Numbered from the stretch's first letter, positions 9,583 to 60,240 are shown. The stretch: DNA of 64,000 nucleotides from Candidatus Saccharimonadota bacterium (GCA_034521515.1 JAXHMH010000002.1:280379-344378); one strand, 5' to 3'. Notes: generated by a model not told the origin, from the sequence alone. Made by a program: numbers and translations.

Positions 9583-10049
9583 TAGTTTCTACCCTTAAAT
9601 GTCACAAACATTCGTTATAAATTAACAATCGACGCCTACCTTAGTGGTAAACGCCGATTGTAAGCGGGTGTGACGGTGTAAGAATCCTATAAAACGTGTT
9701 TTACTCTCGCGGGGACAAGATTACGTAAAACAGCGATTTATAGTTGAGTTTTGGCCTGTCGTTCCCTAGCACACATCACCCTGCTGCAATTGAGTAAGAA
9801 GGGAGTTAGATCGGTTACGCCACTTGCTCGGTTATCACATAGGCGTCCATCTAATAGTGATAACGTCAACGCACCCTAACTCAATTGTGCCCACATTATA
9901 GTACTTTTTGTAATTTATGTCAATGCTTGAGCAGCGTTTACTTAAGCAGTTCCGTAAACTCTGCGGGATACTTATGACTTAGGCGTGTGACTGCCGCCTT
10001 CGCAAACCGGACACCAAAATCAATAATCTCTTTTTCTAGTACCTGCATA

Positions 10050-47219: not shown

Positions 47220-47443
47220 CCACCGTTTCAACAGAAACAAAAAAACCCACCTGAACAGTGGGTTCTTTTCTTCCTGGCTTGTCACCCATCGATCTTGAGC
47301 CTCAGGGTCGAAAGATGAGCCTGTCGAATGGGCTTGCCGTGAGCCTGTCGAATGGACTTGCCATGAGCTTGTCGAATGGGCCTGCCGTGAGCCTGTCGAA
47401 TGGGCTTGCCATGAGCCTGTCGAATGGCGGAAGGAGAGGGATT
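47220..47443 (-). repeat. orphan tRNA-Ser trailer
   Basis: On the tRNA-sense (minus) strand the order is as follows. First ATCCCTCTCCTTCCGCCA-type 3' end (47425-47443). Then four TTCGACAGGCTCAYGGCARGYCCA units (47317-47424), then one long unit (47275-47316). Last comes a 58-bp block that also occurs at 47546-47603. Confidence 0.9.
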
Positions 47444-47600
47444 ATAGCCTCAGGCCAGGCAGCCTATTTTGTCTAGTTACTTTGGCTGCTTGGCTTCAGC
47501 ATATAATCTCGCTAACCGCTCGATTATCTGAACCCGGGTTCGAACCCACCGTTTCAACAGAAACAAAAGAACCCACCTGAACAGTGGGTTCTTTTCTTCC

Positions 47601-51521: not shown

Positions 51522-52268
51522 TTAAAAATCTCCAACAACTGGGAGTATTTGACCTGGGCAAGTTTGTAGCACTCGTTTTATCGCGTTATGCTCATTACGA
51601 GTTACCCATAGATCATACTCCAGCTTTATAGCAATTTGGCGAGCAACATATTGGCACCTATATCTTTCGTGGGGCAGCCAGTCGGCGGCATCTTTGTCGC
51701 CTTTCTCCATATTGGACGCACCATCAACCGCTATTAAAATGAGCGGGTCGTTATAGAACTCTTGTCTGCGTTTGTAATCAAGCTGCTGAGCTCCTTTCTG
51801 CCAAGCGTCCGAGACCGCCACTATATGCTCGATATGGATATCTCCGCTTGTTTCACGACCACGCTGGAAGGGGATTGTCTGGGCAGTAAACGGATCATCC
51901 GGCAAAACCCCCGACAAAACGGTACAATTATCATCATCCAACACAACTTCCTGTAGGTCGCGCTGCAAGATACGATTGCGCATATCACAACCAGCAACTT
52001 CCGCCCAGCCTGGGCTAAACTTATCACGTGCATAACCATCTAGCGATACACGATCTTTAACCGCCAGCTTTCCAAGCGATTCTATGGCTGACACGCGTAG
52101 CTCTTGGGGAACGCTTTGGACAGACAAGGTCTGCGGCGATTCAACAACTTGTTGGGGTTGAAGATAATCAAGCAAGGCTACGATTAAAAACCCCACAGCT
52201 AATAACAAAACTACCGTAAACCGTCGCCGTCTATGCGGCGAGGCTCGTCCCACCAACTTCATGCCCAA
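51522..52268 (-). CDS. membrane-anchored extracellular nuclease, DUF1524/HNH-type
   Basis: N-terminal transmembrane helix, then IHIEHIVAVSDAWQKG...NDPLILIAVDGASNMEKGDKDAADWLP, typical of the DUF1524 nuclease fold. Confidence 0.65.
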   Translation of the reverse strand: MGMKLVGRASPHRRRRFTVVLLLAVGFLIVALLDYLQPQQVVESPQTLSVQSVPQELRVSAIESLGKLAVKDRVSLDGYARDKFSPGWAEVAGCDMRNRILQRDLQEVVLDDDNCTVLSGVLPDDPFTAQTIPFQRGRETSGDIHIEHIVAVSDAWQKGAQQLDYKRRQEFYNDPLILIAVDGASNMEKGDKDAADWLPHERYRCQYVARQIAIKLEYDLWVTRNEHNAIKRVLQTCPGQILPVVGDF

Positions 52269-52696: not shown

Positions 52697-53022
52697 GTTT
52701 TCTCCCTACATATGTTGTATACCAACCACAAACAAACCGCAAGGCGATACAGCAATATAAACCAGCCGACAAAGGCTAGTATTTACCTCTGTTCTATGCT
52801 AAAATCCACCCTGTTCGAGCCAGTTTGAGGCGAGTCATCGCCAATTGCGCACCCGTAGCCCCGCCTGCCTGTTCGAGCCCCCTGTCTTTCTGACAAGAAG
52901 GCCAGGCAGAACGGGCAGGTCAGCTGCCCCGATAGGGTAAAGACAATTAGCGTCACGCGCTCTATCCAGCTGATTTGCGAGAAGCAAGGTTAACAATCAA
53001 CGGTAAATTATTGCCAATTTAA

Positions 53023-53099
53023 GCACCCGTAGCTCAGCTGGATAGAGCGTCTGTTTGCGGTACAGGAGGTCGTAGGTTCGAATCCTGCCGGGTGTACCA
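53023..53099 (+). tRNA. tRNA-Arg (anticodon GCG by hand fold), CCA encoded
   Basis: Acceptor GCACCCG/CGGGTGT, D-arm GCTC AGCTGGATA GAGC, anticodon stem TCTGT/ACAGG, loop TTGCGGT, T-arm GTAGG TTCGAAT CCTGC. Confidence 0.85.
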
Positions 53100-53105
53100 C
53101 GTTAA

Positions 53106-53130
53106 AACCCGCCCATTTGGTCGGGTTTTT
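53106..53130 (+). terminator. rho-independent terminator after tRNA-Arg
   Basis: AACCCG pairs with CGGGTT, followed by a T-run. Confidence 0.7.
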
Positions 53131-53144
53131 GCGTGGTTCTTTTC

Positions 53145-53287
53145 GGCAGGTTCGGTTCTACGACTCAGCAGCTTGCTGATGAAAGTCGTAGGTTCGGCGT
53201 AGCGAAGTGCAGAAAAGAAAGCACCGTAGGTATTTTCTTTTCAAGCTAGCGGAGGAGGCTTTAGCCGCTATCCTGCCGGGTGTACCA
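53145..53287 (+). repeat. tRNA-Arg-derived structured module M1 (T-arm split by a 73-nt two-hairpin insertion, ends in the tRNA-Arg 3' end with CCA)
   Basis: gtcgtaggttcg (53185-53196) equals tRNA positions 53069-53080. atcctgccgggtgtacca (53270-53287) equals tRNA positions 53082-53099. The insertion 53197-53269 lies inside the T-loop. Confidence 0.8.
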
Positions 53288-53300
53288 GGAGAAATATAAG

Positions 53301-53323
53301 CCACCTTGCAAAAGGTGGTTTTT
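53301..53323 (+). terminator. rho-independent terminator directly after module M1
   Basis: CCACCTT pairs with AAGGTGG, followed by TTTTT. It starts 14 nt after the M1 CCA. Confidence 0.7.
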
Positions 53324-53372
53324 ATTTCTGCTCGATGCTCGAGCCGGGATTTGAACCGTCAAGCGAGCTTAT

Positions 53373-53523
53373 GCGGGCGGAAGGTTCGGTGTAGCGCCGC
53401 TCAGCCGAGAAAGCGCTTTAGCATTTTCTCGGCAAGCAAGCGGAAAAGGACTTTAGTCCGCTATCCTGCCGCCCGCCTGTCTTTCTGGCAAGAAGGCCAG
53501 ACAGGACGGACAGGGGTGTACCA
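53373..53523 (+). repeat. tRNA-Arg-derived structured module M2 (homolog of M1, with an extra 38-nt hairpin element before the final GGTGTACCA)
   Basis: gcgggcgg-aaggttcgg, then a 73-nt insertion, then atcctgccgcccgc. The 38-nt element follows at 53477-53514, then ggtgtacca at 53515-53523. Confidence 0.75.
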
Positions 53524-53687: not shown

Positions 53688-54065
53688 TTAATTTGCGTTT
53701 TTAATTGGGAAAACGGACATGAACTCTTTACGATTTGTACGCTTATTTTCTTTTATTTGCACACAAAAGCGTTCTCCGGTTGCGTTTTGACCATAGAACC
53801 TATGAAGTAATATATTTTTCTCTAAGTTGCTAAAAATAGTATCAGGCGTTTCTGTTGTATTGCGCATTACATCAATTGCACATACGTAGAGCTTGAGGCG
53901 TCTGATTCGTTCTTTTGGCGATTTTTGGTTTAGGTGCTCCCAAAAATTGTTAATAAATATCTTGTCTTTTGTAAAATACTTTGAACGAACATAGGGTGCT
54001 CTGCGCGGTGACCGTTTTTGAATGGCATGATATTTCCCACGCGCTAATTTCGTAAGTTCTTTCAA
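53688..54065 (-). CDS. hypothetical basic protein
   Basis: 125-aa ORF with no family that I can name confidently. Confidence 0.45.
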   Translation of the reverse strand: MKELTKLARGKYHAIQKRSPRRAPYVRSKYFTKDKIFINNFWEHLNQKSPKERIRRLKLYVCAIDVMRNTTETPDTIFSNLEKNILLHRFYGQNATGERFCVQIKENKRTNRKEFMSVFPIKNAN

Positions 54066-54358
54066 GTCAGTACCAGGCAGTTCTCCGTATTTTGATTTAT
54101 ATACACTAATCGGTTCATTCTAGCAGTTTAAATCTATTGCACAGTCATAACATCTCTTGCCATGCATAACACCTTACATATCTACATCCTAGCTTAGTTA
54201 CTCGCGTAAGGGAGTTCGAACCGTAAAAGGTTCGGCATATGTGAGTCCGCTAGCCAGCGGACGAACGAAGAAGCCCATCTTTTAGGGGAGCCCTGCCGCA
54301 GACATGAATAAATAGCTCATGCTTGTTATAAACCCCGATGCTCGTTTAAATTAAGTCT

Positions 54359-55057
54359 ATGGAGCATGGACAAAAGGCAACGCTACCATCAACTGAGCTA
54401 GGCGACTCTAGGTGTTTCCAGATCGAGTACTTTGGGCATGGCGATATATTTATGGTTGCCTGGGAGGGCTCTATTGACTTTGAACCATCTGCCGACGACT
54501 CTACATCTGCTTGCTTTGGGTTTTCACACGGCAGCGATGTGACAATACTTGCGGCACTGGGTGGATATTTGAGGCGTATAGGACACACCGTAGACGAAAC
54601 AAGAGATGTACTTCTTGAAGCCGGTACTGACGTATTAACCGCCAACTATCCTGAGTACCAGCTTGACCGCAGCAGGCACAATAGTTTGCTCGGGAAAGTT
54701 GCAGTCGGTCAGGAGTTTAGGAATTATGACCTCGATGGCATCACAGGTTTTGAGCACTCTTTATCCTGCCTTCTTCCTCCTGTGCCAGACAGACCCGGTC
54801 AAATTGGAAAAACAGGGGGAACCGGTATTTACACAACTCCGTCGCAGGCAGACCAAGAACATCTTGTCTTTGTGTCGCTTGCCCCAAACACAGCCTTACC
54901 GCACGAAGAAAACTTAACGGTCAGCCATACGGCCGAGTTCTGCGAGCAAGACGTCCAAACAATCGCTAAACTGGTGTGCGACGTTGCATTAGGTGAGTAC
55001 CGGATAGACGTCTATGCGTTTTTAAAAAATTTCGGGATGGGGAGTGAAGAAGCCTAG
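54359..55057 (+). CDS. hypothetical protein
   Basis: 232-aa ORF with no recognisable family. Confidence 0.45.
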   Translation: MEHGQKATLPSTELGDSRCFQIEYFGHGDIFMVAWEGSIDFEPSADDSTSACFGFSHGSDVTILAALGGYLRRIGHTVDETRDVLLEAGTDVLTANYPEYQLDRSRHNSLLGKVAVGQEFRNYDLDGITGFEHSLSCLLPPVPDRPGQIGKTGGTGIYTTPSQADQEHLVFVSLAPNTALPHEENLTVSHTAEFCEQDVQTIAKLVCDVALGEYRIDVYAFLKNFGMGSEEA

Positions 55058-59563: not shown

Positions 59564-59869
59564 GGAGAGGTACCCAAGTGGCTGCTGCGTGAAACGTGAA
59601 TTGTTCGACGGTTTGCGGCAAACCAGATAAGGTAACAGGTATACTGCACATTACAATTCAAATACGGATAAATACCCGAGTGGCTGCTGCGTGAAACGTG
59701 AATTGTTCGACGGTTTGCGGCAAACCAGATAAGGTAACAGGTATACTGCACATTACAATTCAAATACGGATAAATACCCGAGTGGCTGCTCAAGTGAAAC
59801 GTGAATTGTTCGACGGTTTGCAGCAAACCAGATAAGGTAACAAGTATAATGCACGTACAGCTAGAATAC
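59564..59869 (+). repeat. three tandem 102-bp units, each beginning with a tRNA-Ser 5' acceptor/D-arm-like sequence
   Basis: The units span 59564-59665, 59666-59767 and 59768-59869. Unit 1 starts ggagaggtacccaagtggctg, identical to the first 21 nt of the adjacent tRNA. Units 2 and 3 start ggataaatacccgagtggctg. All three contain gacggtttgc, which also occurs in the tRNA anticodon arm. Confidence 0.95.
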
Positions 59870-59962
59870 GGAGAGGTACCCAAGTGGCTGAAGGGGACGG
59901 TTTGCTAAATCGTTAGGGGGTGGAAACACCCCGCGAGGGTTCGAATCCCTCTCTCTCCGCCA
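59870..59962 (+). tRNA. tRNA-Ser (anticodon GCT), CCA encoded
   Basis: Acceptor GGAGAGG/TCTCTCC, anticodon stem ACGGT/ATCGT, loop TTGCTAA, long variable arm, T-arm GAGGG TTCGAAT CCCTC. Confidence 0.9.
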
Positions 59963-59993: not shown

Positions 59994-60083
59994 GGAAGGG
60001 TGACCGAGTGGTTGAAGGTACTTGTCTTGAAAACAAGCGTGCCGGCAACGGTACCGTGGGTTCGAATCCCACCCCTTCCGCCA
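59994..60083 (+). tRNA. tRNA-Ser (anticodon TGA), CCA encoded
   Basis: Acceptor GGAAGGG/CCCTTCC, anticodon stem CTTGT/ACAAG, loop CTTGAAA, long variable arm, T-arm GTGGG TTCGAAT CCCAC. Confidence 0.9.
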
Positions 60084-60240
60084 TTCGACAAGCTCATGAC
60101 AAGCCCATTCGACAGGCTCATGGCAAGTCCATTCGACAAGCTCATCTTTCGACCCTGAGGCTCAAGATCGATGGGTGACAAGCCCGTTCGACAGGCTCAT
60201 CTTTCGACCCTGAGGCTCAAGATCGATGGGTGACAGGCCA
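60084..60240 (+). repeat. tRNA-Ser trailer repeats: two 24-nt units and two ~54-nt units, three of the four ending in CCA
   Basis: TTCGACAAGCTCATGACAAGCCCA (60084-60107), TTCGACAGGCTCATGGCAAGTCCA (60108-60131), and long units at 60132-60185 and 60187-60240. Confidence 0.95.

Follow-up and report, generated by a model that had tools for sequence, protein, structure and literature searches.

What kind of sequence interrupts tRNA-Arg-like DNA at two different positions within less than a kilobase, and how did it come to be there? This question is raised by a Candidatus Saccharimonadota genome (GCA_034521515.1), of which we analyzed a stretch of 64,000 nucleotides (hereinafter the window). A preliminary description of this DNA had reported two near-identical 38-nt segments, one forming part of a 60-nt insert within a tRNA-Arg 5′ fragment and the other splitting the 3′ end of a tRNA-derived module, each preceded by cccgc, and had likened them to a tiny mobile or intron-like element, with a single local duplication as the alternative. 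The sequences that it listed were all recovered at their positions. Based on the comparisons below, we consider it probable that both segments belong to one selfish DNA element (hereinafter E), a non-coding palindrome of 60 nt (20 codons) that is restricted to Saccharibacteria and functionally analogous to the Rickettsia palindromic elements (RPEs) and the MITE/REPIN-type repeats.

The tRNA-Arg locus and the interrupting element

The intact tRNA-Arg(GCG) gene of the window is surrounded by partial copies of itself (Table 1). On the 5′ side, about 10 nt of the upstream flank were duplicated along with the tRNA relic (52842-52858 versus 53016-53032). On the 3′ side are tandem units of ~190 nt (53082-53278 and 53270-53471, 65% identity), each comprising a tRNA 3′ end from the T-loop to CCA, a terminator hairpin, an antisense T-arm, a sense T-stem 5′ copy and a T-loop insert of ~72 nt. 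The hairpins of the inserts in modules M1 and M2 differ by paired changes on both arms, and the same insert family (family A) recurs in a tRNA-Asp relic of another contig (L012), where the sequence of the main hairpin differs and the pairing is kept. The relic modules yielded no Rfam match at either gathering or permissive thresholds. A further local repeat links 52751-52800 with 53290-53339. The window also codes for the competence protein ComEC.

Table 1. Features of the tRNA-Arg locus, in window coordinates.
Feature	Position	Strand	Evidence
GmrSD_C protein, 100% identical to one from a Candidatus Saccharibacteria MAG	51522-52268		
Relic of tRNA-Arg positions 1-11 (gcacccgtagc), E1 left flank	52849-52859	+	identical to 53023-53033
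E1, full-length 60-nt palindromic element	52860-52919	+	nhmmer model positions 1-60, E=1.3e-20
Relic of tRNA-Arg positions 12-18 (tcagctg), E1 right flank	52920-52926	+	contiguous with 52849-52859 in the real tRNA
Antisense tRNA-Arg D-arm copy (positions 12-27)	52958-52973	-	16/16 complementary to 53034-53049
Intact tRNA-Arg(GCG), CCA encoded	53023-53099	+	ARAGORN; Rfam tRNA 62.7 bits vs gathering score 29
Terminator-like hairpin 3′ of tRNA	53104-53130	+	inverted repeat I2, then T run
Relic module M1	53185-53287	+	
M1: tRNA-Arg raw positions 47-58	53185-53196	+	
M1: 73-nt family A insert in T-loop	53197-53269	+	
M1: tRNA 3′-end duplicate with CCA, raw positions 60-77 of the 77-nt gene (canonical 59-76)	53270-53287	+	
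Second terminator-like hairpin	53288-53332	+	
Relic module M2: T-stem 5′ copy (cggaaggttcgg), 72-nt family A insert, first 9 nt of 3′-end copy (53463-53471)	53378-53471	+	hairpins I5/I6; alignment with M1 and L012 tRNA-Asp relic
E2, 43-nt copy	53472-53514	+	nhmmer model positions 20-60, E=1e-10; direct comparison with E1
Remainder of third tRNA 3′-end copy (ggtgtacca), E2 right flank	53515-53523	+	repeat family D11
125-aa ORF between M2 and M3	53688-54065	-	
Degenerate third relic module M3 (anti-T-arm, aaggttcgg, insert, ccctgccg)	54210-54299	+	repeats D6, D10, D17

Both copies of E lie within non-functional partial tRNA-Arg copies flanking the intact gene, and, as the preliminary description had noted, the tRNA sequence resumes exactly after each of them. 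The two flanks of E1 rejoin as tRNA positions 1-18, which are contiguous in the intact gene, while those of E2, atcctgccg and ggtgtacca, rejoin as the last 18 nt of the tRNA and are contiguous in the 3′-end duplicate of M1. The compared 38-nt parts (52882-52919 and 53477-53514) agree at 34 of 38 positions, bearing out their reported near-identity, and a degenerate 38-nt pattern finds just these two sites in the window, with 0 expected in shuffles. The unit itself is larger than the 38 nt first proposed, the entire 60-nt insert being one full element from which E2 differs in missing 17 nt between the two internal CCTGTCT repeats. Likewise, the cccgc preceding both segments is present as described, yet it is the 5′ end of E itself and not a target motif. 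No orthologous empty site for E1 or E2 was obtained, the synteny of the tRNA-Arg locus not being kept in the nearest relatives, and the fetched loci contained no "empty" outer hairpin (gtcatcctgaac..gttcaggatgac).

An alignment of copy contexts and the nhmmer model built for E give the 60-nt consensus CCCGCCTGTCTGATCGAGCCCCCTGTCTTTCTGACAAGAAGGCCAGGCAGAACGGGCAGG. It takes the form of one long imperfect hairpin (E1: -36.1 kcal/mol, z=-4.5), for which two alternative registers are each 95-98% paired across 15 distinct copies. Its ends, CCCGCCTGTCTG and CAGGCAGAACGGG, pair imperfectly and do not constitute clean terminal inverted repeats. Internally deleted derivatives of 30-43 nt retain both ends, with the 30-32-nt mini-forms in L016 (two copies) and L020 keeping nothing else. 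Corresponding to 20 codons, E is open in 5 of its 6 frames. The 15 distinct copies show a mean column identity of 91%, and E stays strongly conserved even where the genomes compared share only ~60% identity in their proteins; part of the conservation of its core reflects ascertainment, because copies were collected by means of patterns anchored in the central 21-29 nt. A covariation test in the two registers detected no paired (compensatory) changes above shuffled controls. Hence, the hairpin is compatible with the data but unproven, and it is by inference that we assign the action of E to the DNA rather than the RNA level. Rfam 15 holds no match to E at E-values up to 10 for the window or up to 1 for ten related loci. 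Examined by eye, E does not fit the HDV-like or twister ribozymes, and a hammerhead reading (CUGAUCGAG...AGAAC) would need two 1-nt insertions in the core.

Distribution and insertion sites

A scan with the 21-nt core across 185,579 species genomes, one per species, matched 11 contigs. Ten of these are from Saccharibacteria/Saccharimonadales MAGs, several of them from one genome; the other is from a gammaproteobacterial MAG and matches in the 21-nt core only, with about one chance match expected. A metagenome scan contributed 11 further contigs with E. Thus, the search for further copies proposed at the outset recovers full-length versions with 82-98% identity to E1 in ~20 contigs, drawn from at least eight Saccharibacteria genome assemblies and from metagenomes. 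At least 2-3 copies are present per genome; overall, the number per genome looks low (2 to ~10). No copy was found in viral contigs, phage records or plasmids, and the sources searched gave no earlier description of E.

The most frequently recurring site is in the D-stem, between tRNA positions 11 and 12 (11/12; the slash marks the insertion point), which E splits in four tRNAs: Arg in the window, Lys (L009), Ala (L020) and Gly(CCC) (L021, L022 and L026). In L009, E separates gggccatagc from ctcagctg upstream of a tRNA-Lys(TTT) gene with the 5′ end gggcccatagctcagctg; in L020, it separates ggggcattagc from ttagttggtttag ~47 nt upstream of tRNA-Ala(TGC). The tRNA-Gly(CCC) case differs from these in that E sits between T11 and T12 of a complete gene, which was missed by ARAGORN. 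A second site, 67/68 on the 3′ strand of the acceptor stem, is shared by E2 and a copy in opposite orientation in the tRNA-Asp 3′-end duplicate of L012, and a mini-copy in L020 splits a tRNA-Ile relic at 45/46. Wherever E splits Arg, Lys or Ala, an intact gene is found ~50-190 nt downstream; accordingly, the pattern fits inactivation of the copy hit and not splicing. For the interrupted tRNA-Gly(CCC), no intact copy was seen in the fetched locus, and this isoacceptor is probably dispensable.

The tRNA-Gly(CCC) gene also furnishes the empty sites that had been proposed as a test of mobility. Relatives fetched via the adjoining cob(I)alamin adenosyltransferase gene include four contigs (L030, L031, L038 and L039) with an uninterrupted tRNA-Gly(CCC), gcgagtgtagt/tcagtg..., and a neighboring protein 80-86% identical; in L030 and L038 the upstream flank is the same as in the filled L022. 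Filled and empty versions differ by exactly 60 nt, with neither target duplication nor loss of bases, and the filled contigs are ~99% identical to each other in the neighboring gene. Similarly, in L016 the motif cgtga/ctgaccgctca occurs once uninterrupted and twice with a 30-nt mini-element inside, again with no target duplication. The window junctions are also devoid of one, so that the proposed test for target duplication is negative at these sites. E is therefore dispersed and multi-copy, is present or absent at orthologous sites, and is exactly inserted; E1 and E2 are two independent insertion events.

Across 17 copies the flanks show a bias, with T at both -4 and +1 in 11/17 and G at -2 and C at +2 in 10/17 each, which the D-arm site TAGC/TCAG fits. 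Sequence derived from tRNAs, estimated at ~1% of such a genome, holds about 8 of the 19 independent insertions, suggesting, by informal comparison rather than a formal test, that insertions are strongly enriched there.

Other copies reside in protein-coding genes. In L018, the ORF of a 696-aa RecG (...QLKPARPAWPSCQKDRGLGQTGGSGSEF...) runs through a reverse-strand copy of E; the wedge domain of this protein has a Pfam match of 174 residues on 153 profile positions, with gaps at this point against PDB 1gm5. A YjbR-family protein in L025 and L027 has a 26-aa insertion containing E relative to a 62%-identical homologue (L005), while in L023 and L017, the leader peptides of type IV pilins terminate in residues encoded by E (..AWPSCQKDRGL..TGG/FTIVELLVV). 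A peptide-level census of in-frame copies, using a concatenated five-frame query and a 34-aa translation from the window, returned no significant matches. Overall, E is found in both genic and intergenic DNA without a consistent position or orientation relative to genes.

Mobilization and competing explanations

We propose that E moves as DNA and is mobilized in trans by an enzyme not encoded beside it, which probably recognizes the folded hairpin and its ends. Judging from the occupied sites, it would prefer tRNA-gene sequence, above all ..TAGY/TCAG.. at the 11/12 position of the D-stem, with T at +1 and C at +2 favored more weakly at sites in general. Insertions into the sole working copy of an essential tRNA would be lost by selection, with E surviving where the harm is likely to be small, namely in intergenic DNA, in-frame protein loops, pilin leaders, tRNA-Gly(CCC) and non-functional tRNA copies. 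In the window, E1 would then have landed in a displaced tRNA-Arg 5′ fragment upstream of the gene and E2 at 67/68 of the third 3′-end copy downstream. The ~300 kb of related DNA inspected yielded no candidate transposase or recombinase and no autonomous insertion sequence with the same ends. When ORFs within 4 kb of 17 copies were clustered, only the pilins recurred, and neither Pfam nor PHROGs searches detected a transposase or integrase among the neighbors of E in the window, L006 and L016. Of the known families considered, the IS200/IS605 type was set aside: E has no separate left- and right-end hairpins and no fixed 4-5-nt target.

In the window and L009, in L017 and in L025, extra flank bases accompany E, hinting at recombination with flank transfer and not at clean transposition. 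Therefore, recombination-driven spread stays a rival, albeit one that we regard as improbable. Here, E would have no transposition machinery of its own, and a stable hairpin would be copied around passively as short conserved sequences, such as tRNA D-arms and pilin N-terminal codons, recombine or undergo gene conversion with one another, with natural competence helping and bits of flank being carried along. This would account for the identical position in four tRNAs that have TAGCTCAGCTGG in common and for the location directly before the FTIVEL codons in two pilin genes. Consistent with it are the tcagctgccc that follows E in both the window and L009 though their tRNAs differ there, an FTIVEL relic in L017 with 6 synonymous differences from the resident copy, 18 extra nt beside E in L025, and the ComEC gene noted above. 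However, the single-copy recG and yjbR genes and the unrelated intergenic sites have no paralogous donor, the shared homologies of 4-12 nt are too short for RecA-type exchange, and the mini-derivatives keep exactly the two ends.

A broader proposal concerns the partial tRNA copies with other small inserts that surround many tRNA genes in the loci of this lineage. Such relics are also seen at tRNA-Ser(CGA) in the window, at tRNA-Ile and tRNA-Ala in L020, and at tRNA-Phe and tRNA-Gly in L022 and L038. In L006, tRNA-Leu has three modules, the last of which is also split by E, and an upstream pseudo-tRNA-Leu has two copies of an 85-105-nt insert (family B). Family B, known from L006 and L020, has CCCGCCTGT in common with E and is inserted in the T-loop and at position 39/42. 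In L028, a relic of tRNA-Gly(CCC) positions 1-11 is separated from the intact gene after it by 57 nt that include a TATAAT box; this relic breaks at 11/12 without E. Because relics also occur without E, as in L028, we take them to be independent of E, which landed in them. One could conceive of E and at least two other families of small structured inserts as a guild specifically attacking tRNA genes in Saccharibacteria. The relic arrays would then be either traces of regeneration, in which every insertion is answered by the rebuilding of an intact gene next to it, or decoys that take the insertions instead; we offer this only as a speculation with a low likelihood. Its sharper form, in which E is removed from the pre-tRNA-Gly(CCC), appears very unlikely; if true, it would be the first bacterial tRNA intron other than group I.

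The corresponding intron-like reading, in which E is removed at the RNA level and the interrupted tRNA-Gly(CCC) stays functional, is that part of the original mobile or intron-like interpretation which the comparisons do not support, and we give it little chance. In three related contigs E interrupts a complete tRNA-Gly(CCC) whose cloverleaf is intact in all other respects, and in the predicted fold E forms a hairpin of its own that leaves the acceptor, anticodon and T arms in place. Moreover, near-identical short introns interrupt different tRNA genes of Thermoproteales archaea at non-canonical positions, whether the same or not, a precedent for small introns at many tRNA positions. Those introns carry a bulge-helix-bulge cut by the splicing endonuclease, whereas E lacks this motif and is also found in protein genes and intergenic DNA. 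The motif calls for two 3-nt bulges at the splice junctions with a 4-bp helix between them. When drawn by hand at 11/12 of Arg or Gly, no bulge-helix-bulge forms: the central helix has 2 to 3 of 4 standard or wobble pairs, the number varying with the junction, and a flanking exon helix is missing. A group I intron can be set aside too: the 60 nt of E cannot hold its core of ~200 nt or more, the sites are in the D-stem and acceptor stem rather than in the anticodon loop, where group I tRNA introns usually lie, and there is no Rfam intron match. Further, the intact Arg, Lys or Ala gene downstream of each hit is what would be expected if E inactivates the copy it enters, and the ORFs containing E stay open through it. 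The intact cloverleaf of the interrupted tRNA-Gly(CCC) itself says little because the filled alleles are very recent, their neighbor genes being ~99% identical while the relatives at 80-86% are empty.

We find it highly unlikely that E is instead a host cis-element under selection, such as a protein-binding site, a stability or termination hairpin, or a small RNA. The very high cross-species conservation, low copy number, stable hairpin and presence of several copies in tRNA-gene leaders are features that such an element might display. They are countered by the inconsistent placement and orientation relative to genes, the copies inside coding sequences and tRNA bodies, the presence or absence at orthologous sites in close relatives, and the lack of an Rfam family match or a covariation signal. 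Finally, the origin of E1 and E2 from one local duplication with nothing mobile involved, for which the local repeats of the region and the count of just two copies in the window might be invoked, has a negligible probability, since E1 is closer to foreign copies (95-98% identity to those in L017, L013, L015, L014 and L018) than to E2 (88%), the two interrupt different parts of the tRNA, and dozens of copies elsewhere and empty sites have already refuted it.

Relation to known elements and implications

The closest counterparts of E as a selfish palindromic element are the RPEs, which are described as short palindromic selfish repeats inserted in frame into unrelated protein genes, adding a peptide segment to their products (PMC10969869). 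Like them, E is short and palindromic, has no transposase of its own, inhabits a small-genome host-dependent bacterium, and has in-frame copies (in RecG, YjbR and two pilins). However, E has 60 nt as opposed to ~100-150 nt for the RPEs and belongs to a different phylum; the likeness is one of behavior, that of an analogue only. A further difference is the strong enrichment of E in tRNA genes and fragments at fixed positions, as the part of the RPE account available to us makes no mention of tRNA targeting (PMC10969869).

With the MITEs and Correia-type elements, E shares a small, non-coding, dispersed, hairpin-forming and non-autonomous character as well as deleted derivatives that keep the ends. 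In contrast to MITEs, it generates no target-site duplication, its ends are only an imperfect inverted repeat, and no parent insertion sequence was seen; it does not count as a classical MITE. The REP/REPIN repeats, associated with RAYT (HUH Y1) transposases, resemble E, of which a 30-nt minimal hairpin form exists, in being hairpin repeats without target duplication; moreover, they are mobilized in trans, as we propose for E. REPs are extragenic, number hundreds per genome and are species-specific, whereas E is low-copy (two in 64 kb), crosses species and is also genic.

The relics themselves invite comparison with integrating islands, which displace a tRNA 3′ fragment on insertion, a principle exploited by Islander (PMC4383910). 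The tRNA-Arg 3′-end duplicates, extending from the T-loop to CCA downstream of the intact gene, resemble such island-displaced fragments as depicted there (PMC4383910), and the same layout is seen after other tRNAs. Nevertheless, a check of the neighboring ORFs found no integrase or cargo between the tRNA gene and the displaced fragments. Unlike islands, the intervals are only ~190 nt and non-coding, there are 70-100-nt inserts in the T-loop and antisense copies of the T-arm, and 5′ fragments have been displaced too.

Taken together with these comparisons, E is best filed as a new variety of palindromic selfish DNA that combines RPE-like behavior with an unusual affinity for tRNA genes. Saccharibacteria have genomes of roughly 0.7 Mb and are thought to carry few mobile elements; E indicates that selfish DNA persists even in such minimal genomes, where proteins such as RecG and the pilins gain peptides of 20 residues from it. 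For annotation, it implies that tRNA genes interrupted by E can escape ARAGORN, as did tRNA-Gly(CCC). The splitting and rebuilding of tRNA genes have so far been discussed mainly for archaea. The recurring 11/12 breakpoint, together with the halo of interrupted partial copies around the genes, provides a bacterial case for tRNA gene splitting, interruption and rebuilding.

Relic arrays around tRNA genes

Downstream of many tRNA genes in the Saccharibacteria loci lies an array of partial-copy relics. Its order 3′ of the tRNA is a terminator, copies of the T-arm (antisense) and of the T-stem 5′ side, a structured insert of 40–100 nt and a duplicate of the tRNA 3′ end, the last being near-perfect and spanning the T-loop to CCA. 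Such arrays are present also without E, the 60-nt palindromic insertion element, and some tRNA genes have a unit of this kind upstream as well.

Coordinates of features in the window and in related loci (L-numbered)
Feature	Location	Positions	Strand	Score
Relic arrays	window	53100-53471; 54210-54299		
Relic array	window	47425-47600	(-)	
Relic array	L006	1330-2135		
Relic array	L020	1739-1955		
Relic array	L022	324-805		
Relic array	L038	240-390		
24-nt tandem repeats TTCGACAGGCTCATGGCAAGCCCA	window	60081-60239; 47315-47427		
Family B insert	L006	1372-1586; 1795-1884; 1982-2071; 2905-2990		
Family B insert	L020	1815-1908		
Cyclic di-GMP-II riboswitch	window	9800-9885	(-)	58.8 bits vs gathering score 53.5
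ORF, 125 aa	window	53688-54065	(-)	
ORF, 232 aa	window	54359-55057	(+)	

The tRNA-Arg of the window (53023-53099) carries the anticodon GCG and not ACG, the usual one in bacteria. The two ORFs were reported as lying between M2 and M3, the relic modules downstream of this gene; searches of both against Pfam and PHROGs returned nothing above threshold. The corresponding interval of the related locus L006, flanked by the module that carries E and by a third one, contains a LOG-family gene.

At a further related locus (L028, 795-862), positions 1-11 of tRNA-Gly(CCC) form a relic, separated from an intact tRNA-Gly(CCC) downstream by 57 nt that include TATAAT and two small hairpins. Compared with the relic, the intact gene has a matched pair of changes in its acceptor stem. 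The relic breaks at 11|12, the D-stem position at which E splits tRNAs; E itself is absent there. The tRNA-Ala of L020 has a 5′ leader (1447-1480) and a 3′ trailer (1567-1592) complementary over ~25 nt, the pairing of which would form a long processing-type stem enclosing the tRNA.

Tandem repeats at tRNA-Ser genes

The 24-nt repeats begin immediately 3′ of the tRNA-Ser(TGA) CCA and also 3′ of a duplicated tRNA-Ser(CGA) 3′ end. Each unit has CCA at its end and can fold into a hairpin of 4 bp closed by a 7-nt loop; resembling units of the form TTCGAC...CCA occur downstream of tRNAs in two related loci (L001 and L030). Upstream of tRNA-Ser(GCT) lie 3.1 copies of a 102-nt unit (window 59571-59890). 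Each unit combines a -10-like box with the tRNA's first ~21 nt, an insert of 22 nt and positions 27-36 of the same tRNA; these repeats are thus promoter-plus-5′-fragment copies in tandem.

Further small inserts in tRNA relics

Family B, a structured insert of 85–105 nt of the form RGAGACCCGCCTGTGGCGGGTYGCAAGG ... ACGGGGTCGC(loop)GTGACC, occupies the T-loop and 39|42 in tRNA-Leu and tRNA-Ile relics of two genomes. Its first hairpin varies in sequence between loci while the pairing is kept, and it has CCCGCCTGT in common with the 5′ end of E. Additionally, a 22-nt palindrome, CACGGCATGTCGCCATGGCATG, interrupts a tRNA-Ile 3′-end relic at 65|66 (L020 1919-1940) and also adjoins E in another genome (L013); it may represent one more tiny insertion family.
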